Below, piece after piece: positions 14,955 to 64,000 of a stretch of 64,000 bases of DNA. The notes beneath the pieces are model-generated. The model saw only the letters and a list, made by a program, of their open reading frames with translations, searched no databases and was not told the origin of the DNA. Numbering within the stretch: position 1 is the stretch's first letter; each line of letters begins with the position of its first letter. The position numbers were made by a program, and so were the translations under genes. The DNA is from an uncultured bacterium (GTDB lineage: Bacteria; Patescibacteriota; Patescibacteriia; Patescibacteriales; UBA12465): the NCBI GenBank assembly GCA_903874345.1, contig CAIQRY010000065.1, forward strand, positions 2,679 to 66,678. The letters are read 5' to 3'.

Positions 14955-16652
14955 TTAGGCGATGGCGGACAAAAGTTCGTCGCCGTCCATGAGGGAAACT
15001 ACCTTGTTCCAGTCGACACAAAGGATGCGGTCATCATCCATCGGCGGTAAAACCGAACGGATAATTTTATAAGCGGCATCGGTTTTGGCGCCGAGTTGAC
15101 CGTGACCTTCTTTTGCCAGATCGGCTTCGGTTAATGATATTCCCTGGGCAGCGGCCATAATCTCGGCGGCAATCACTCGGTAGGAATTCTTGAGCACCTT
15201 AGTCAGATGACGAGCGGAAATTGTGCTCATACTGACATAGTCTTCCTGGTTCGCGGAAGTCGGGATTGAATCAACCACGGAGGGGTGACACAAAACCTTG
15301 TTCTCGCTGACCAACGCGGCGGTCGAATACTGTAAGATCATGAGACCGGTGTTCAAAAGAACATGCGTCTGTCCAGCCAAGTCGCTGGGCAAGCCATAGC
15401 TAGTTGAAGACATAGTCAGAGCATAGAAACGGCGATCGGAAATATTGGCCAGCTGCTGTAAGGCAATCTTGAGGAAGTCGGCGGCCTGTCCTAAAGGTTC
15501 CCCGTGGAAATTGCCACCGGAAAGAGCTTCAAAACTACCATCCGCTTTTTCAAAAACCAGCGGGTTGTCAGTCGCCGCATTAATCTCATCCAGGAAGATT
15601 TTTTCTGCATACCAGAACGCCTGGTAAACTGAACCGGCCACTGGCGGATAAGCACGGAAAGAATAAGCATCCTGCACTCTCGGTGTCGGCTGATCATTCT
15701 CCATGTACCTCTTGGATCCTTTTTCGGCTGGTAAACATACTTCCCTGGCCTCTTTGGTCATTCTCTGAGAGCCAGCCACCAGCTTGAGCATCCGCTCAGC
15801 CACCCATTTCGCACCATGGTTATTTCTGATTCCAATTAAACGGGGATCAAAAGCCGCGGTCTCGCCCCGGATAGCTTCCAGAGAAAGAGCAGCGGCCAGG
15901 TCAGAAAAGCTGAGTAACCTCTTGGCGTCATGAATAGCCAGGAGTCCCAGGGCCAGAGTAAAGGTAGCGCCATTGGTTAAACCCATGGCTTCCTTGGCTC
16001 CCAGAACCAGTGGTTTCACATTCATAATCTCCAGAGCTTCAACAACCGGCATCGGTACTCTCTGATTGGGAGTAATCGCGTTTTTTGGCAGAAGGACATT
16101 TTGTCCTTTCAGGCCGACCAAAGCAGCCGCGACGTGCGCCAGAGGCGCTAAATCGCCGCTTGACCCAACCGAGCCCTGTTCCGGGACGCAAGGGATAATT
16201 CCCTGGTTGTAAAATTCCAGGATCTTTTCACAGGTTTCAAGCCGCATGGCCGAATAACCCGTGGCAAAGGAGTTGACTCTGAGAATCATCGCTGCCCGCA
16301 CTACCTCTTCCGGAAAATATTCTCCGGTCTGGACGCAGTGCGCCGGAATGTAATGCTTCTGATAAGCGATGATTTCTGCTTCGGGGATGATTGTCCCCTT
16401 TTTTATTCCGCATCCGGTGTTGACGCCGTAGATAATGTCACCCGCCTTGATACGGGCTTCGAGGCCGGACCTCTTTTTCTGAATCCGCGCCGTCGCGTTA
16501 TCGGCGTGATTGTTTTCGTTCACATTATCCTTGCCGTTTGATAAAACAACAACCGGATAATGATGGTCTCCGTGGCAATCGTGATAACCACGTGCAATCA
16601 TGACAACCTCCTTGAGGGTCAAGTCATGACCAGTTAAAACTACTTTTTTCAT
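14955..16652 (-). CDS. hutH: Aromatic amino-acid ammonia-lyase family protein, most likely histidine ammonia-lyase, with Ser-Ser-Gly at the MIO position
   Basis: 565 aa; YGVNTGCG then GSVGSSGDLAPLAHVA (HAL/PAL signature GxxGASGDLxPLxH with A to S) and NPLV region. Urocanase is encoded 3 kb away. Confidence 0.85.
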   Translation of the reverse strand: MKKVVLTGHDLTLKEVVMIARGYHDCHGDHHYPVVVLSNGKDNVNENNHADNATARIQKKRSGLEARIKAGDIIYGVNTGCGIKKGTIIPEAEIIAYQKHYIPAHCVQTGEYFPEEVVRAAMILRVNSFATGYSAMRLETCEKILEFYNQGIIPCVPEQGSVGSSGDLAPLAHVAAALVGLKGQNVLLPKNAITPNQRVPMPVVEALEIMNVKPLVLGAKEAMGLTNGATFTLALGLLAIHDAKRLLSFSDLAAALSLEAIRGETAAFDPRLIGIRNNHGAKWVAERMLKLVAGSQRMTKEAREVCLPAEKGSKRYMENDQPTPRVQDAYSFRAYPPVAGSVYQAFWYAEKIFLDEINAATDNPLVFEKADGSFEALSGGNFHGEPLGQAADFLKIALQQLANISDRRFYALTMSSTSYGLPSDLAGQTHVLLNTGLMILQYSTAALVSENKVLCHPSVVDSIPTSANQEDYVSMSTISARHLTKVLKNSYRVIAAEIMAAAQGISLTEADLAKEGHGQLGAKTDAAYKIIRSVLPPMDDDRILCVDWNKVVSLMDGDELLSAIA

Positions 16653-19555: not shown

Positions 19556-21568
19556 TTACTTCTTTTTACTGACTGCTTCATTAATAACTGCCAAATCAAC
19601 CAGGTAAGGCAAGGTAATCTGCCCGTCACGATTTCCTTTGTTCCACTCCGCTGCAGTTTTTAATGCGCCGTCTTTCCTGGCCCAAGCGCGACGAGCGACT
19701 CCGCCCATCACATCCCAGGACAATCCGCATTTGATAATCCTATCCACTCGTTTGGTGCCATCCAGGAGCAGGCTGTTACCGCCATTAATGGCCCGGCCAA
19801 TACCGACCCCGCCACCGTTAGACAGAACGACCATGGTAAAACCGCGAGCGACATTACCGGCAAAACATTGCGTCGCCATATCGGCTGTTGGTTTGCTACC
19901 GTCATAGATATTAGCCGTTTCCCGATTAGGCGAATCCGTGCCGGAAACGTCGTGGTGGTCACGGCCCAACATAATCGGTCCGATCTCGCCGTTTCTAACT
20001 GCCTTATTGAAAGCCAAGGCGATTTTTATCCTTCCCTGTTCGTCGTTGTACATGATGCGCGCCTGGGTGCCAAGAACTAAATCGTTTTTCTCGGCATCGG
20101 CAATCCATTGGTAATTGTCGCGGTGCAAGGAACTCTGGGTCGGATCAATCAGAGACATCACAATTTGATCCGTCTTTTTCAGGTCTTCTTTTTTCCCGCT
20201 CAAACAAACCCAGCGGAATGGTCCGAAGCCATGGTCGAAACAAATCGGCCCCATGATATCCTCGACATAGGAAGGCCAGATGAATCCGTCGTTGGTGTTC
20301 ACGCCGTTTTTAGCAATTTCCTTAAGGCCGGATTTGAAAACGGCATTCATAAAATTATTGCCGTAGTCCCAGAAACGAACGCCCCGCTCGGTCAGATTTT
20401 TAATCGCTATGAAATGGCGCTTTAATGATTCGTCAACCATTTTTTTAAAGCGTGTCTTCTTTTTACTGAGTAGATAGCGGCCTTCTGCAAAATCAACGTC
20501 CACTGGCGTATAACCGCCTTCATAAGCAGCGTGACAGGACGTTTGATCAGAAAGCAAATCGACATCCACATGATAATCAACCAGGTATTCGAGCAGATCA
20601 ACGATGTTACCGTGATAGGCGAGAGCCAGGGGTTGTTTGGATAATTTGTACTTCTCAATCAAATAAGCAACTTCGCTCAAATCAGAAGTATATTGATCAA
20701 TCCAGCCCCTCTCCTTGCGCAGCTTAATGCGTCCCTGATCAACTTCGGCAATAACAGCGATTCCGCCAGCAATCTTAACAGCTTTGGGCTGAGCGCAGGA
20801 CATGCCGCCCAAACCAGAAGAAACAAAACATTTACCGGCTAAATTCTGATCTTCGCGCACGCCTAAATACTGTCGGGCGGCGTTAAGGATAGTAATATAG
20901 GTACCATGAATGATGCCCTGAGTACCGATATACATCCAGCCGCCGGCCGTCATCTGACCATAATTAGAAACGCCCAGAGCAGCCAGTCGCTTGAACTCTT
21001 CGGCATTATCCCATTCACCGACCAGTAAAGCGTTGGTGCAGATAACGCGCGGCGCATTGACCGAGGACTTAAAAAGCCCAACCGGATGCCCCGAACTGAT
21101 AACCAGAGTCTGATCACGGCGCATTGCCTGTAAATATTTCTTGACCAGGAGATACTGCATCCAATTCTGAAAAGTCTGCCCAGTCTCGCCATAGGTGACG
21201 AGCTCATAGGGATAAAGAGCGACATCGAAGTCAAGATTATTATCAATCATGACTTGCAAGGCCCGGGCTTCAGGGATGCCTTCATATTGGTCCATCGGCT
21301 TTCCGTAAATCCTTCCTTCGGGACGGAAACGATAAGCATAAATTCGGCCGCGAGTTCGGAGCTCTTCTAAGAATTCATCGACCAGATCAGCGTGCCTTTC
21401 GGCGGGAATGTAACGTAACGCGTTTCGGAGCGCCAGTTCAATCTCCTTCGGTTCAAGCTCTAAAGCGCGATCAGGCGCTCGCATGAATTTCGGGTCGAAA
21501 GTTTTTGGCGGCGGTAATTCGGCTGATAACTTGATTTCCATAGAATCAGCAATGTCTGAATTTCTCAT
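19556..21568 (-). CDS. hutU: Urocanate hydratase (urocanase), long form
   Basis: 670 aa; YGQMTAGGWMYIGTQGIIHGT matches the urocanase signature (GQMTAGSWIYIGPQGIVHGT), NAD-binding Rossmann segments. Confidence 0.9.
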   Translation of the reverse strand: MRNSDIADSMEIKLSAELPPPKTFDPKFMRAPDRALELEPKEIELALRNALRYIPAERHADLVDEFLEELRTRGRIYAYRFRPEGRIYGKPMDQYEGIPEARALQVMIDNNLDFDVALYPYELVTYGETGQTFQNWMQYLLVKKYLQAMRRDQTLVISSGHPVGLFKSSVNAPRVICTNALLVGEWDNAEEFKRLAALGVSNYGQMTAGGWMYIGTQGIIHGTYITILNAARQYLGVREDQNLAGKCFVSSGLGGMSCAQPKAVKIAGGIAVIAEVDQGRIKLRKERGWIDQYTSDLSEVAYLIEKYKLSKQPLALAYHGNIVDLLEYLVDYHVDVDLLSDQTSCHAAYEGGYTPVDVDFAEGRYLLSKKKTRFKKMVDESLKRHFIAIKNLTERGVRFWDYGNNFMNAVFKSGLKEIAKNGVNTNDGFIWPSYVEDIMGPICFDHGFGPFRWVCLSGKKEDLKKTDQIVMSLIDPTQSSLHRDNYQWIADAEKNDLVLGTQARIMYNDEQGRIKIALAFNKAVRNGEIGPIMLGRDHHDVSGTDSPNRETANIYDGSKPTADMATQCFAGNVARGFTMVVLSNGGGVGIGRAINGGNSLLLDGTKRVDRIIKCGLSWDVMGGVARRAWARKDGALKTAAEWNKGNRDGQITLPYLVDLAVINEAVSKKK

Positions 21569-21667
21569 AATAAAGGTTTAGGGTTAATAATTGACTATTT
21601 TAAATTTGTAAAGGACAAATCACTAAGCGTGATTAAATATCTTAGCTCTTCCCGGCGCCTCACGTCA

Positions 21668-21695
21668 ATAAAAAACTCGCTTATTTCTAAGCGAG
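21668..21695 (-). terminator. Rho-independent terminator immediately 3' of tRNA-His on the minus strand
   Basis: CTCGCTTA-TTTC-TAAGCGAG perfect 8 bp stem followed (minus strand) by a UUUUUU run. Confidence 0.75.
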
Positions 21696-21776: not shown

Positions 21777-21844
21777 GTATATTTTTATAATAAAGATCTA
21801 TTTAATTTTCTTTTTATAATACCAAAATAATTAAATAATGTCAA

Positions 21845-28660: not shown

Positions 28661-29068
28661 CTAGCTGAGTTTGAATTGGACGGGCAAAACCAGCATGGTT
28701 TTAACCGGTTTTCCTTTGTCTTCACCAGGAGACCATTTAGGCATAGCCGCCACCTTTTTCAATACGACCTGGTTGCAATCGCCGGTTAAGCCTCTTAACA
28801 CCTTAGCATCCGTAACCTGGCCGGTTTCATCCACTACGAATTGGATAAACACTTTTCCTTGAATTTTTTTGTCTTTGGCCCATTGCGGATATTCAATGGT
28901 TGATAAATAATCAGCCAGTGCCTGATCACCGCCGACAAATTGTGGCATCTTTTCCGGACGCAAATAGACTTCACTTACCTTAGCGTGCTGGCAGCTGGTG
29001 AAAACGAGGGCTGTGATCATGATCACCAACCCTAACATAATTTTAATGTGCTTTTTAATCTTTTTCAT
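28661..29068 (-). CDS. TonB C-terminal-domain protein with lipoprotein-type signal peptide
   Basis: Signal peptide ending LVFTSC. C-terminal about 80 aa matches the TonB_C pattern (YPQWAKDKKIQGKVFIQFVVDETGQVTDAKVLRGL...). Confidence 0.55.
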   Translation of the reverse strand: MKKIKKHIKIMLGLVIMITALVFTSCQHAKVSEVYLRPEKMPQFVGGDQALADYLSTIEYPQWAKDKKIQGKVFIQFVVDETGQVTDAKVLRGLTGDCNQVVLKKVAAMPKWSPGEDKGKPVKTMLVLPVQFKLS

Positions 29069-29127
29069 GACAACCTTGTTTTACGGGGTTTAGATTTTAA
29101 TAATACCGCCAAATTCCCTTTTTTGTC

Positions 29128-29153
29128 AAAAAAAGAACCTCGGAAAACCGAGG
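29128..29153. terminator. Terminator after rpsI (CCTCGG-AAAA-CCGAGG), bidirectional flanks
   Basis: Perfect 6 bp stem; U-run on minus (A7 on plus upstream), T-run on plus downstream. Confidence 0.65.
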
Positions 29154-30428: not shown

Positions 30429-30448
30429 ATAACGGATTAATTAACGGA

Positions 30449-31318
30449 TTATTTTTTAGTTTTTTTCTCTTTTTTAACTTTTTCTTTTTTAACTTTTTTA
30501 TCTTCTTTGGTTTTAGTTTCCGTTTCTTCCTCTTCAACCGAGGTCGCGCCAATAATTTCATCTTCGACTGCTTCTTCTGCGGCGACGGTCGTTTCCTCGC
30601 TTTCCGCCTTCGGCAGTAAAGCATTGAACTGTTCGACTAAAATTTCCGTGGCGCGGTTAAACGCCTCTTCCGGTTTAATCGTCCCGTCGGTCTTAACATT
30701 TAAAATCAATTTATCCCAGTTCGTCATTTTACCGACGCGGGTATTTTCGACATTAATACTAACTAAAATAACCGGGGAAAAAATCGAATCAATTTCAATA
30801 TAACCAATTTCCCGATTTTCTTTCTTCGTGCCTTCCGACATCTTATAGCCGCGGCCTTCTTTAACAAAGATTTCCGCTTCCAAACTACCGGCTTCATCCG
30901 TAATATGAGCAATGACCAAATCCGGGTTCTTAATTTCGACCTGGGAATTTTTAGCAATATCGCCAGCCGTAATTGTTTTTTTGCCCTTAACTTTTAAATC
31001 TAAACGAATTTCTTCTTCCGTAAAGACCTTAAAGCGTATTTGTTTCAAATTTAAAATAATTTCTAGAACATCCTCTTTGACATGAGGGAGAGCCATAAAC
31101 TCATGACTGGCGCCTTTGATTTTCGCACCGATAACCGCGGCTCCTGGTAAAGATGATAATAAAACGCGGCGCAAGGAATTACCCAGCGTCATACCGTAGC
31201 CCGGAAATAAGGGCTCGACCGTAATAATCCCTTCATGGGGACCATTACCGGCTTTAAAATCAATTTTTTTAGGATTGGCGATGTTTTGCATATGTTTTTT
31301 ATTTTGAGTAATACTCAA
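30449..31318 (-). CDS. rpoA: DNA-directed RNA polymerase alpha subunit lacking the canonical C-terminal domain (replaced by an acidic then Lys-rich tail)
   Basis: 289 aa; N-terminal dimerisation/assembly domain is recognisable (GYGMTLGNSLRRVLLSSLPGAAV...). After about residue 235 only EETTVAAEEAVEDE...KKEKVKKEKKTKK, with no helix-hairpin-helix alphaCTD. Confidence 0.88.
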   Translation of the reverse strand: MSITQNKKHMQNIANPKKIDFKAGNGPHEGIITVEPLFPGYGMTLGNSLRRVLLSSLPGAAVIGAKIKGASHEFMALPHVKEDVLEIILNLKQIRFKVFTEEEIRLDLKVKGKKTITAGDIAKNSQVEIKNPDLVIAHITDEAGSLEAEIFVKEGRGYKMSEGTKKENREIGYIEIDSIFSPVILVSINVENTRVGKMTNWDKLILNVKTDGTIKPEEAFNRATEILVEQFNALLPKAESEETTVAAEEAVEDEIIGATSVEEEETETKTKEDKKVKKEKVKKEKKTKK

Positions 31319-31928
31319 TAATCATTTGCACATTTAAATTTTGCGGCAAATCCTGATCTTGCGGCTCATGCAGAACTTTGGCGCTTAAATCCGTCACGTC
31401 AAAATTCAACCAGCTCGGCCGTTGCGCTTTTTTTAACTTCTCGCCTAAATTTTTAAAATAGCGATTATTCTGCTTAGTCTTTTTAATCTTAATGACCTGG
31501 CCTAATTTAACCGTCATCGAGGCCGTGCTCGCCTTACGATCATTAACCGTAAAATGACCATGAGTGACGAGCTGTCTCGCCTGCGCGCGAGAGGTCGCCC
31601 AACCGAGGCGGTAAATGACGTTGTCGAGGCGCATTTCGAGCAAGCGTAAAAAGTTTTTACCGGCATCACCCTGTTTCTTTTTAGCTCTCTCAAAAGTCAA
31701 ACTTAATTGTTTTTCAAATAAGCCATAATATTTTTTGGCTTTCTGTTTCTCCTGTAATTGCAAACCGTAGTCGCTCAAACGCTTATGTCCTTTGGGGCCA
31801 TGAAAACCCGGCGCATAGTTGCGTTTAATGATCGCGCATTTCGGACCTAAGCAGCGTTCGCCTTTTAAGAAAAGCTTTTCGCCCGCCCGACGGCATTGCT
31901 TGCATTTATTATCGATATTTCTACCCAT
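31299..31928 (-). CDS. rpsD: 30S ribosomal protein S4 (zinc-ribbon type)
   Basis: 209 aa; N-terminal CKQCRR...C..PKC zinc motif, S4 domain. Confidence 0.95.
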   Translation of the reverse strand: MGRNIDNKCKQCRRAGEKLFLKGERCLGPKCAIIKRNYAPGFHGPKGHKRLSDYGLQLQEKQKAKKYYGLFEKQLSLTFERAKKKQGDAGKNFLRLLEMRLDNVIYRLGWATSRAQARQLVTHGHFTVNDRKASTASMTVKLGQVIKIKKTKQNNRYFKNLGEKLKKAQRPSWLNFDVTDLSAKVLHEPQDQDLPQNLNVQMIIEYYSK

Positions 31929-31945
31929 AAGATTATAAATTTAAA

Positions 31946-32500
31946 TTAGACGCGACGTGGTTTCTTCGGCCGGCAACCATTATGCGGTACCGGGGTAATA
32001 TCCTTAATCGCGGTCACTTCTAAGCCATTGGCATTTAAAGCGCGGATGGCCGCTTCACGACCAGTGCCGACACCGGAAACAAAAACGCTGACTTCCTGTA
32101 AACCATATTCTTCTTTCGCTTTCTGCGTCGCAATTTTAGTAATAATTTGCGCGGCATAAGGGGTCGCTTTTTTTGCGCCCTTAAATCCGGCTAAACCCGC
32201 ACTTGCCCAAGAAATCACATCGCCATTCGTATCGGTTAAGGTCACCATCGTGTTATTATAAGTCGCCTGAACATAAGCCCGGCCGACTTTAACAATCTTG
32301 GCGGTCTTTTTCTTTTTCTTCTTGATTAATTTTTTCTTGGCGCGCGCCTGTTTATTCTTTTCCAGTTTCTGTTTGATTTCTTCCGGCAGTTCTTCGCTCG
32401 TGGTATCAAAAGAAAACTCGCTTTCGCGTTCTTCTTTGACTTCCTCGACCGGGGCCTTAGGCGTCGCCTTGATTTCTTCGGATTTTATTTCGTCAGACAT
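31946..32500 (-). CDS. rpsK: 30S ribosomal protein S11 with an acidic/Lys-rich N-terminal extension
   Basis: C-terminal 125 aa is S11. First roughly 60 aa is E/K-rich ([26 protein letters not shown]). Confidence 0.92.
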
Positions 32501-32931: not shown

Positions 32932-33045
32932 TTACCCCTGTCTTTGTTTATGTTTGGGGTTCTTGCAAATTACGCGGACCCGGCCTTTACGGCGGACGAC
33001 TTTGCAGTCTTTGCAGATTGGTTTAGCACTAGCTCTTACTTTCAT
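32932..33045 (-). CDS. rpmJ: 50S ribosomal protein L36 (not in the ORF track; found by hand translation)
   Basis: Minus-strand translation from ATG at 33043-33045 gives [37 protein letters not shown], 37 aa, with the classic L36 C-x2-C...C...H zinc motif, between infA and rpsM. Confidence 0.85.
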
Positions 33046-33063
33046 AGTATATCCAATTATTTA

Positions 33064-33321
33064 TTACAAACGGTAAATGATCCGGCCCTTAGTCAGGTCA
33101 TAAGGGCTGATTTGCAGCTTAACCTTATCACCGGGGAGGAGCCGAATCTTATTCATTCGCATTTTTCCGGACAAATGGGCGAAAACTTCGTGACCATTCT
33201 CAATAACCACCCGGAAACTGGCGGCCGGCATGAGCTCAACCACTTCGCCCTGGATTTCAATGAAGTCCTTGGCGTTTAAAGTGACTGAATCATTACTGTT
33301 TTTTTCAATTTCGTTTGACAT
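33064..33321 (-). CDS. infA: Translation initiation factor IF-1
   Basis: From internal Met: ...[67 protein letters not shown] matches the IF-1 S1-like fold. The ORF-track start at 33363 probably over-extends. Confidence 0.9.
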
Positions 33322-33461
33322 TAACACAAAAAAATTTGATAAAGACTTTAGGCGCCTTATCAAAATTTCTTTATAAAATATTTAGCTTTTTTATAATAAT
33401 ATTCTTAATAAAACTATTATAGGGATAAGCGCCTCGGTTGTCAAGAGTTCGGGCTGGAAAT

Positions 33462-34037: not shown

Positions 34038-34187
34038 GACACTTATGATTTAGGTTAATATTTTTTTTAAAAAACTAATAAAATTATATCACTTTTTAAT
34101 ATAATTGTCAATAAAAGGAGGGTCTAACAAATAAAAAATGGCTTATCTTAGCCATTTTTTTATTATAAATACCTTGTATATCCCAAT

Positions 34188-37774: not shown

Positions 37775-37837
37775 CTAGTTTTGTTAATGATCTGGTTTAT
37801 TTTGATGCCAACACTATAACATTAATTAAATAATTTG

Positions 37838-39595
37838 TCAATCTACCTCTCCCATGGATTGCAGTTTCAAAAGTTTGGCATATAAACCGCCTGAAAACTG
37901 GGATAATTCAGCGTGGCTCCCTTCTTCGGCGACTTGGCCGTTTTCAAGCACAATAATTTTATCCGCCTGCTTAATTGTACTTAAACGATGGGCGATAATA
38001 ATCGTTGTTCGATTCTGACTGATCTTACCGAGAGCGTTCTGAATTAATTTCTCGCTAGCGCTATCTAAGTTAGAAGTGGCTTCGTCAAAAATCAAAATCC
38101 GCGGATTAGCCAAAAGCGCGCGAGCAATCCCTAAACGCTGTCTTTGCCCACCCGATAATTTAATGCCCCGCTCGCCGACTAAAGTATCATAACCTTTATC
38201 CAAGCGTAAAATAAATTCTTCGGCGTTCGCTATTTTCGCCGCTTTTTCAATTTCCGCCAGGCTCGCCCCGGGTTTAGCATAAGCGATATTTTCTCTTACG
38301 CTCAAATCAAAAATCTCCACTTCCTGCGGCACAATGGCTAAAAATTTCCGAAAAGCATAAAGGTCATAATCTTTTAAATTCTTACCGTCCAATAAGACTT
38401 CTCCTTCCTGCGGGTCATAATGACGATAAATCAAACGCGCAATCGTGGTTTTGCCTCCCCCCGACGGGCCGACTAGAGCCGTAACCTGATTGGCGTTCAA
38501 TTTAAAATTCAAATTGCTCACCGCCGGACGTTTATTATCACCGTAAGAAAAAGATGTATCTCTAAATTCAATTTCACCTTTGATATCTTTGGGTTTGAAA
38601 CCGCGCGGTTTATTAACAATATCGGCCGGCGCATTAAATAAAGTCATCAGTCGACTCACACCTTCTCGGCCCTCTTCCATGCGATCATAAAAACGCGAAA
38701 TACGCGATAAGGATGAATAAGCTTTTTCACTCAGCGTAAAAGCAAAAATCAATGTACCAACCGTGAGGCCGTGACGATAAACCAAATAAACACCCAAGAA
38801 CAAAACGACCACGCGACCTAAATCAACAATAAAATTTCGGCCGAGACCAATTTTCATAATCCAGGCCCATTGTTTATTCTCATTATCCCGAACATGCCGC
38901 TTAACTTTATCGAATTCATTAAGCTCCCGCTTTTCCTGAACAAAAGATTGCACGGCGTTAATATTAATAATCGCCTGTCCCATTTTACCGGAAGCAGTTT
39001 CATAATCGCGATAAATTTGTTTACGCACGGGATAAATCTTTTTGTTCGCGAAATAAGTCACAACAATATAAAACGGCGCAAAAATTAAGAAGGATAAACC
39101 GATCAACCAATTCGCCCAAAAAAGAGCGACCAAGGTTACGGCGAGCTGGACCAAAGTCGGCAAGACTTCGAAAAAAACGTTACTGATGAATTCCGAAATT
39201 TTGTCGACACCGCGTTCGATTTTTATAATTTTGGCGCCGGTATTTTCTTTTTCATGATAACCGAGGCCCAGGAAGACTAATTTTTCCTGCGCTTTGACGC
39301 CTAAAAAATATTCGACTTCAACTAGTAATTTTAAAATCAAACGGTCGCTTAAATAACCGAGAAAAGAACTTGCTTGGCCGGAAGCCCAGTATAAAACTAC
39401 GAGCTTAATGATTAAAATTAAACTATCAATCGTAAAACCGCTCAAGCCGTCGATGAGTAGCTTTAAGATATACGGTAAAATCAAATCCAAAAATGCGGCC
39501 ACGACAATAATCGCCGTAATCTTCAAAAAGAAACGACGAAAAGGCGCGAGCAAGCGCCATAATTCGGTCCAAAAAGTTTTCCAGCTGTTATTCAT
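37838..39595 (-). CDS. ABC transporter, fused permease/ATP-binding exporter (MsbA-like)
   Basis: 585 aa; six N-terminal TM helices. Walker A GPSGGGKTT, signature LSGGQRQR, Walker B ILIFDEATS. Confidence 0.9.
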   Translation of the reverse strand: MNNSWKTFWTELWRLLAPFRRFFLKITAIIVVAAFLDLILPYILKLLIDGLSGFTIDSLILIIKLVVLYWASGQASSFLGYLSDRLILKLLVEVEYFLGVKAQEKLVFLGLGYHEKENTGAKIIKIERGVDKISEFISNVFFEVLPTLVQLAVTLVALFWANWLIGLSFLIFAPFYIVVTYFANKKIYPVRKQIYRDYETASGKMGQAIININAVQSFVQEKRELNEFDKVKRHVRDNENKQWAWIMKIGLGRNFIVDLGRVVVLFLGVYLVYRHGLTVGTLIFAFTLSEKAYSSLSRISRFYDRMEEGREGVSRLMTLFNAPADIVNKPRGFKPKDIKGEIEFRDTSFSYGDNKRPAVSNLNFKLNANQVTALVGPSGGGKTTIARLIYRHYDPQEGEVLLDGKNLKDYDLYAFRKFLAIVPQEVEIFDLSVRENIAYAKPGASLAEIEKAAKIANAEEFILRLDKGYDTLVGERGIKLSGGQRQRLGIARALLANPRILIFDEATSNLDSASEKLIQNALGKISQNRTTIIIAHRLSTIKQADKIIVLENGQVAEEGSHAELSQFSGGLYAKLLKLQSMGEVD

Positions 39596-62784: not shown

Positions 62785-63363
62785 TTATTTTCTCAGCATT
62801 TTCTTTAAGGCCGCTTTCACGCGCTCGCCGCTATCTAAGACTTCCGGGCCGACCGCGTTTAGAGCGCTCCGGGCCTCACTTAAGGAATAGCCTAAAGACA
62901 TTAAGGCGTCTATTTCATCACTCCCGAAATTACCGCCTTCCAGCGGCGTCAAATTACCGGTCGGACGCAAAACTTTATTTTTTAATTCTAAGACAATGCG
63001 CTCCGCCGTCTTCTTGCCAATACCCGATACTTTCGTCAAAAGATTCGCATCGCCGCGCACAATCGCTTCTTTAATATCGCCGGCCGAAGACAAAGACAAA
63101 ACGCCGAGGCCGGATTTCGGACCGACGCCGGAAACCGTGAGCAAGATTTCAAATAAATCTTTATCTTCTCGCGTTTTAAAACCATATAAATCGCTCGCGT
63201 CCTCGCGAACCACATGATGGATATAAATTTCTGTTTCCGTATCCAGTCTTAGTTCATTTAGAAAATTTTCACCAACAAAAATCTGATAGCCGACGCCATT
63301 TACTTCCAAAACCAAATGGTTCAGAGTTTTATAAATTATTTTTCCTTTAAGATAAGCGATCAT
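62785..63363 (-). CDS. ruvA: Holliday junction branch-migration protein RuvA
   Basis: From internal Met: MIAYLKGKIIYKTLNHLVLEVNGVGYQIFV... (OB domain), HhH pairs LLTVSGVGPKSG / LTKVSGIGKKTAERI, C-terminal domain III. The upstream part of the ORF track overlaps the next gene. Confidence 0.88.
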   Translation of the reverse strand: MIAYLKGKIIYKTLNHLVLEVNGVGYQIFVGENFLNELRLDTETEIYIHHVVREDASDLYGFKTREDKDLFEILLTVSGVGPKSGLGVLSLSSAGDIKEAIVRGDANLLTKVSGIGKKTAERIVLELKNKVLRPTGNLTPLEGGNFGSDEIDALMSLGYSLSEARSALNAVGPEVLDSGERVKAALKKMLRK

Positions 63364-64000
63364 AATTTTATTTTTCTTCGTATCACTGTTAGAGCCGGAA
63401 TAAGCCCGACTGTCTTGGGTATTTCTAAGGCGCAAACCTGCGACCCGCCGCCACCATGCGCTTCCTTGATGACGCGGCCGCTTTTCGCGTCCCAAAGTTC
63501 GTCGGGACACATTTTTATTATATCATAATTCGGCCTAATAATCTCTATCTCGTCACCGGCTTTCAGAGTGTTATGGACGCGGAAATACAGACGATTACGG
63601 TCACGAGTTGCGACGACTTGGCCGCAAAATTCCCAAGCGCTTTTTTCATGTGAATTATTAATATTCTGCTCACCGCGACCGCCCAATAAAAATCCGGTCG
63701 TATAACCGCGATGCACGAGTTTCGTCAGGAGTTCCTGATATAAATATTCTAATTCGCTTTTTAATTTTGCGACTGGCGTTTTTTTAAGGATTGAATTTAA
63801 AACGCGACGATAAATACCGCAAACCGTGGCTTGATAATAAACGCTTTTCGCTCGGCCTTCAATTTTAAAACTCGTAATCCCGGCCTCGGCTAATTCTTTT
63901 AAATATTTAACGAGACAAAGATCGCGCGAATTTAATAAATAAGTGCCATGTTTCTCTTCAACCAGCTCTAATTCCTCATCATGCCCGCCGGTCTTAAGCA
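63360..64000 (-). CDS. Peptidase U32 family protein, C-terminal part (gene continues beyond the window end)
   Basis: Minus-strand frame reads ...GITSFKIEGRAKSVYYQATVCGIYRRVL... (U32 FKIEGR.KS..Y motif), continuing into the listed 118 aa ORF. Stop overlaps the ruvA start by 4 nt. Confidence 0.7.
   Translation of the reverse strand, partial: LKTGGHDEELELVEEKHGTYLLNSRDLCLVKYLKELAEAGITSFKIEGRAKSVYYQATVCGIYRRVLNSILKKTPVAKLKSELEYLYQELLTKLVHRGYTTGFLLGGRGEQNINNSHEKSAWEFCGQVVATRDRNRLYFRVHNTLKAGDEIEIIRPNYDIIKMCPDELWDAKSGRVIKEAHGGGGSQVCALEIPKTVGLIPALTVIRRKIKL

Follow-up and report, generated by a model that had tools for sequence, protein, structure and literature searches.

The rpoA gene in the 64-kb stretch of DNA analyzed here (the window) is best read, from its sequence, as the genuine single-locus gene of a Falkowbacteria-like patescibacterium, encoding a natural α subunit of RNA polymerase (RNAP) with only its N-terminal domain (αNTD), the C-terminal domain (αCTD) being replaced by a short charged tail. 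The reading that we favor, at slightly better than even chances, is that the basic tip of this tail tethers RNAP to upstream DNA while offering no docking site for activators. We infer that the tail binds upstream DNA, where on promoters it does so, and that αCTD-dependent regulation has been lost.

The rpoA coding sequence spans 30449..31291 on the minus strand (280 amino acids plus the stop codon at 30449-30451). A preliminary description had given the open reading frame as 30449-31318. This frame is present, on the minus strand, and its listed start is a TTG at 31318 that would add nine residues and overlap the rpsD stop. Translation most likely begins 27 nt farther downstream, with the ATG at 31291. 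We took it as the start because a database protein 100% identical to the window RpoA (P0001) is 280 amino acids long and because the homologues begin with MQNIA, the N-terminus in all of those in our alignment A3; M1 is nearly invariant across 64 homologues. The gene keeps its place in the conserved rpsM-rpsK-rpsD-rpoA-rplQ order, within the standard arrangement infA-rpmJ-rpsM-rpsK-rpsD-rpoA-rplQ-rplM-rpsI. The operon is headed by infA (33064-33363), with rpmJ (32932-33045) read from the sequence. The genes rpsK (encoding S11; 31946..32500), rpsD (S4; 31299..31928, directly upstream of rpoA), and rplQ (L17; 30078..30428) all lie on the minus strand. An intergenic gap of 20 nt (30429-30448) separates the rpoA stop from the start of rplQ. 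Beside this ribosomal operon, a small lipoprotein-like protein (28661-29068, minus strand) carries a TonB C-terminal domain (PF03544, E 2e-14), which is unexpected if the organism has no outer membrane. The window also holds genes for an aromatic amino acid lyase of the histidine ammonia-lyase type and for urocanase (14955-16652 and 19556-21568, both minus strand), a histidine-utilization pair in an otherwise minimal patescibacterial genome.

The αNTD, comprising the dimerization and insert domains (residues 1-227; 30611..31291, minus strand), was found by Pfam, PDB, AlphaFold, and Foldseek comparisons and is intact, as the preliminary description had claimed. The Pfam matches were full length, covering positions 2-119 of 119 of PF01000 (residues 66-181) and 1-74 of 74 of PF01193 (residues 35-231), and the NCBIfam model TIGR02027 scored 258.1 bits against a cutoff of 227.8. 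PDB α subunit sequences matched RpoA residues 7-255 at E 1e-57, and identity of the αNTD to canonical RpoA was 41-47%. An AlphaFold model built with a 64-sequence alignment had a pLDDT of >90 over residues ~10-228, and Foldseek superposed it on solved αNTDs with a target-normalized TM of ~0.9 and an rmsd of ~2 Å. From the intact domain and its conserved invariant residues (R41, R42, and others), we infer that the protein assembles as α2 with β and β′. In Escherichia coli, α(1-235) retains an NTD that dimerizes and nucleates β/β′ assembly (PMC8321222), and the window αNTD would do the same, as in other bacteria. Weak profile matches to archaeal and eukaryotic α-like subunits appeared at residues 199-240. 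The archaeal RpoD/L and eukaryotic Rpb3/Rpb11 (AC40/AC19) proteins are likewise α-like assembly platforms without an αCTD, but the insert domain (PF01000) and the TIGR02027 match clearly mark the window protein as bacterial, and its likeness to them goes no further than the missing CTD.

The C-terminal (HhH)2 domain with its flexible linker (PF03118) is missing from the protein, which in this respect resembles the NTD-only products of naturally CTD-less rpoA genes. In Pfam, PF03118 gave no match to RpoA even at E≤1. The NCBIfam rpoA models aligned only over profile positions 1 to ~230-255 of 298-344, and matches to PDB α chains, which are 310-350 residues long, stopped at ~residue 226-255. The tail, with 53 low-complexity residues, leaves no room to hide an (HhH)2 domain of 65-80 residues, and since rplQ begins 20 nt past the stop, there is no space for a CTD exon. 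When the αCTDs of E. coli and Bacillus subtilis were searched with phmmer against the six-frame translation of the window, the best E value was 6.5. A profile built from 95 diverse αCTDs recovered the CTDs of both control loci (L003, E 1e-21; L004, E 5e-18), and found nothing better than E 0.47 in the six-frame translation. That best match was the HhH of RuvA (62785-63510) and was rejected. These results agree with the earlier claims that the αCTD is absent and that no downstream or frameshifted segment encodes it, and the separate αCTD-like open reading frame for which a search had been suggested was found nowhere in the window by six-frame phmmer and hmmsearch.

The truncation is shared by relatives, the other point on which a check had been proposed. 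The 120 best homologues are 71-87% identical to the window protein, 269-291 amino acids long, and all have PF01000 and PF01193 only; none of them matches the CTD profile (best E 0.55). Where named, they belong to the Patescibacteria group or to Candidatus Falkowbacteria. The representative of the nearest 50% cluster (P0121) is 59% identical and sister to the window protein in a neighbor-joining tree, and its own 120 best homologues, some of them named Falkowbacteria, are again all CTD-less, with PF01000 and PF01193 only and lengths of 241-318 amino acids. Some CTD-less entries in the databases are clear junk, P0310 among them, so an artefact or a pseudogene in which a frameshift or premature stop removed the CTD deserves mention, but here it is extremely improbable: the same architecture recurs in 240 independent clusters from many assemblies, rplQ follows the stop after 20 nt, and no frame holds a CTD-like sequence.

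The extent of the loss was surveyed by a HMMER scan of 1.84e9 50%-identity representatives, from which the best 150 RpoA clusters were classified. Among these, 95 had a CTD and 55 did not. About a third of the latter were evident junk (frameshifts, fragments, or artefactual fusions) and were rejected, including P0186, P0251, P0263, and P0268 among others, leaving ~36 of the 55 as genuine proteins with charged tails. Representatives close to the window protein that bear a CTD are also named Patescibacteria. We also sampled GTDB species genomes with one peptide pattern, which gave an arbitrary set of 80 loci among the matches listed. In this sample, a Candidatus Veblenbacteria genome (L001), a Patescibacteria-group metagenome-assembled genome (MAG; L035), and a MAG labeled Gammaproteobacteria (L012) were CTD-less. 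The CTD was present in all 65 non-CPR genomes and, within Patescibacteria, in seven Saccharibacteria, a Microgenomates, a Peribacteria, Parcubacteria GW2011_GWF1_45_5, and another Patescibacteria-group MAG. Loss of the αCTD is thus patchy within Patescibacteria as far as this arbitrary sample goes, and some Parcubacteria keep the domain. In the neighbor-joining tree of the NTDs, CTD-less and CTD-bearing proteins interleave, and the tree is star-like and too unreliable for counting loss events. The L012 locus (CAZQRI010000022.1, labeled 'uncultured Gammaproteobacteria') encodes a CTD-less, Lys-tailed RpoA 47% identical to that of the window and probably comes from a mislabeled or contaminated bin.

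The function of the αCTD might be supplied in trans, either from a gene for a small αCTD protein or from an additional full-length rpoA at another site in the genome, of which our search covered the 64 kb of the window. Stand-alone PF03118 proteins are known from databases, the two α subunits of Francisella (α1 and α2) were among the PDB matches, and diverged tandem α-α fusions occur in other organisms (P0124 and P0150). We nevertheless consider a trans-acting substitute very unlikely. No αCTD gene was found in the window or in the ±2.5-kb flanks of three CTD-less GTDB loci, and the conserved replacement motifs described below argue for compensation in cis. A hunt for stand-alone αCTDs with a profile of 16 patescibacterial CTDs returned 33 short PF03118 proteins, a result that is uninformative about the window genome; of these we inspected three, one of which lies in a phage-like island, one is a frameshifted rpoA fragment, and one is a fragment at a contig edge.

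Several unusual α proteins came to light in these surveys. At L081 (6001-6327), a stand-alone 108-amino-acid αCTD (PF03118) is encoded in a phage-like or mobile region beside Sipho_Gp157 and a serine resolvase, and this protein may be a decoy or mimic of the host αCTD. Tandem α proteins, each a single chain, occupy the rpoA position in other metagenomic organisms (locus L086 4001-5581, GCA_003864475.1, BGZO01000033.1, and protein P0150): P0124 has the order NTD-NTD-CTD with NTDs 54% identical to each other, and P0150 has the order NTD-CTD-NTD-CTD with 47% identity between its NTDs. From their sequences, both look like real covalent α 'dimers'. A further candidate for a fused α-α protein, P0122, was rejected as an assembly artefact, its halves being 100% identical.

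In place of the αCTD, the window protein has a tail of 53 residues, KAESEETTVAAEEAVEDEIIGATSVEEEETE followed by TKTKEDKKVKKEKVKKEKKTKK, which fits the earlier description of an acidic stretch and then a K/E-rich tail. The acidic spacer (KAESEE...VEEEETE, residues 228-258; 30518..30610, minus strand) varies in sequence among relatives and keeps its negative charge. The Lys-rich tip (residues 259-280; 30452..30517, minus strand) ends in a conserved KKxKK. The tail is predicted to be disordered: AlphaFold gave residues 232-274 a pLDDT of <50 and no secondary structure. Behind the VKKEK units of the tip is a 15-nt tandem repeat at 30464..30498 (2.3 copies, 95% match), and with such an encoding slippage probably shapes the tip, the length of which may vary by slippage at this repeat. 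Segments with at least 11 Lys or Arg in 20 residues were found in 4 of the 76 putative window genes, namely those for L16, L2, RpoA, and S11 (in its N-terminal extension), so the composition of the tail is not shared by the proteome at large. In S11 (rpsK 31946-32500, minus strand), an N-terminal extension of ~72 amino acids (residues 1-72) passes from acidic to Lys-rich as the RpoA tail does, and the Pfam S11 domain occupies residues 73-183.

Among the 120 close homologues, tail length is 49 residues at the median. The part before the last 20 residues is unalignable and carries a median net charge of -9, compared with +6 for those last 20. KKxKK forms the C-terminal end in 107 of the 120, and KKEKK is present in 107 of the 120. 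The tip of the tail is thus under constraint, with KKxKK kept next to an unalignable spacer. The sister clade has a different tip. P0121 ends in KKQKRGRPKKN, and in 107 of its 120 homologues a variable acidic spacer precedes [KR]GRP[KR], which lies among the last 25 residues. This end, typically KKKRGRPKK, is by its motif a canonical AT-hook (KKRGRPKK), and an AT-hook is also present in the Veblenbacteria L001 and in the Parcubacteria protein P0149. P0266, a CTD-less protein of 332 amino acids, has instead two SAP/HeH-like repeats at residues ~255-332, which fall below the Pfam thresholds (SAP_new25 E 8e-5, Ish1 E 7e-3). Among the genuine CTD-less representatives in the best 150 clusters, 27 of 36 have a net charge of at least +3 in their last 15 residues. 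Since five CTD-less lineages (P0127, P0128, P0130, P0139, and P0141) end in purely acidic residues, the basic tip is not universal.

This pattern of constraint bears on the possibility that the tail is a linker remnant lengthened by slippage, harmless and with no role in DNA binding, which would leave RNAP without upstream contact by α. [quoted passage not shown] We still regard a mere remnant as unlikely, given that KKxKK is kept in 107 of 120 proteins that are only 70-87% identical, that an exact AT-hook is kept in 107 of 120 proteins of the sister clade versus an unalignable spacer, and that just 2 non-canonical segments of this kind occur among the 76 window genes.

The helix-hairpin-helix αCTD has been lost in the lineage, and ~50 disordered residues occupy its place. 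In the tethering mechanism that we prefer, the acidic spacer of ~30 residues would stand in for the α interdomain linker. Upstream of the -35 element, the basic tip would touch DNA electrostatically and largely without regard to sequence, and the AT-hook tip of the sister clade would bind instead the minor groove of AT-rich DNA. The tail would thereby retain a minimal form of the upstream-DNA tethering by the αCTD, and αCTD-mediated activator docking of the class I type would be gone. The preliminary guess that the Lys-rich tail contacts DNA gains from the conserved tip and the sister-clade AT-hook. However, the G-R-P core flanked by Lys or Arg that defines an AT-hook is not in the window tail, nor in any of its 120 close homologues. 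Further points against tethering are the purely acidic tails of some CTD-less lineages, the short tandem DNA repeat behind the tip, through which slippage contributes to its form, and the bipolar S11 extension in the same operon, which may point to drift or to a wider role of such segments in nucleic-acid-binding proteins.

The acidic part might itself be the main actor, as a nucleic-acid mimic or electrostatic regulator similar to the δ subunit or to σ70 region 1.1, tuning promoter selectivity or RNAP recycling or binding RNA or ribosomes. The conserved net charge of the spacer (~-9), the several lineages with an acidic tail only, and the similar S11 extension are consistent with this, and δ, which is thought to act electrostatically on nucleic acids, provides a precedent for a charged disordered RNAP appendage. 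We consider it unlikely that the acidic part has the leading role, since the conserved part is the extreme C-terminus, which together with the AT-hook in the sister clade would be left unexplained, and since the tail sits at the exact former place of the linker and the CTD. The likeness to δ (RpoE of Firmicute RNAP), as a highly charged disordered appendage, is functional and compositional only. Whereas δ forms a subunit of its own, in which a folded N-terminal domain precedes a mostly acidic tail, the window protein shows only αNTD domains in Pfam, and no homology of the window RpoA to δ was found.

The promoters of the window qualify another early claim, that promoter architecture and activator mechanisms differ from those of model bacteria. 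A perfect TTGACA-N17-TATAAT promoter of the σ70 type lies upstream of infA (33416..33444, minus strand), with a terminator T-tract at ~-50 to -63, and likely drives the infA-rpmJ-rpsM-rpsK-rpsD-rpoA-rplQ operon. A second perfect consensus σ70 promoter lies at 34083-34111 (minus strand), and near-perfect ones lie at 21816-21844, 37813-37841, 29100-29129, and 21639-21668. Perfect matches to TTGACA-N17-TATAAT thus number 2 in the window against 0.04 expected, and sites with at most one mismatch number 5 against 0.47 expected. By their -35 and -10 motifs the core promoters are canonical, near consensus, and unusually strong, with no difference from those of model bacteria; a difference would concern only upstream-element and activator contacts. 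Such near-consensus -35 and -10 elements would lower the need for upstream help. Several promoters are located directly downstream of an intrinsic-terminator hairpin, with its T-tract at ~-37 to -63, an anecdotal observation on 5-7 readable promoters. A reading of upstream A/T tracts as UP-like elements was set aside, these 5-7 readable promoters being too few for statistics.

A more far-reaching version of the tethering proposal covers a large radiation within Patescibacteria (Falkowbacteria, Veblenbacteria, and others). In these bacteria the αCTD would have been replaced by a disordered DNA tether, the AT-hook or poly-Lys tip of which recognizes A/T tracts upstream of the -35 element, often those of a preceding terminator T-tract. 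The tip would then be a convergent UP-element substitute of ~10 residues, and αCTD-dependent activation would have been abandoned. We offer this extension tentatively, as a possibility somewhat short of even chances.

Compared with the canonical RpoA of E. coli, B. subtilis, and T. thermophilus (PF01000, PF01193, and PF03118), the window protein shares the αNTD and the operon position between rpsD and rplQ, but it has a disordered acidic/basic tail where the canonical protein has a linker-tethered (HhH)2 αCTD that binds UP elements and activators. Closer in architecture are the rpoA products of Hodgkinia, Tremblaya, and the Euglena chloroplast, which keep the NTD and have lost the CTD in a reduced genome. 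The loss described here, by contrast, is found in large, diverse environmental clades with genomes of ~1 Mb, and a conserved tip (KKxKK or an AT-hook), which the source on those cases does not describe (PMC8321222), takes the place of the domain. In mycobacteria, the AT-hook of WhiB7 is tethered to RNAP and binds promoter DNA, and AT-hooks have been called rare in bacteria (PMC8786299). The likeness, an AT-hook peptide held on RNAP and touching promoter DNA, is closer for the sister-clade tails and looser for the Lys-rich tip. WhiB7 differs in being a separate, σ-bound transcription factor and not a core subunit, and the window tail has no GRP core.

UP elements and class I activators depend on the αCTD (PMC8321222, PMC4495994), which is regarded as essential or near-essential in model species (PMC4495994). 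Its natural loss has been reported for Hodgkinia and Tremblaya and cited for Euglena plastids, and loss in Parcubacteria is mentioned in a single sentence (PMC8321222). The work cited there for the Parcubacteria, Nelson and Stegen 2015, makes no mention of the polymerase in its main text. [quoted passage not shown] Our literature search found no paper that pairs the αCTD, or the AT-hook, with Patescibacteria or CPR. The bare fact of CTD loss is therefore not new. What appears to be undescribed is how far the loss extends, how patchy it is within the phylum, and that a conserved tip, whether poly-Lys or AT-hook, replaces the domain.

A large and environmentally abundant group of bacteria thus has no αCTD, although the domain is treated as universal. 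This matters for annotation and wherever the marker sets for genome quality assume PF03118 to be present in all bacteria. The absence of the αCTD limits the kinds of transcription activation available to these organisms, in keeping with their small sets of regulators and with promoters close to consensus. Judging by the conserved tip, whether AT-hook or poly-Lys, a few disordered residues may be able to perform the DNA-tethering half of αCTD function.
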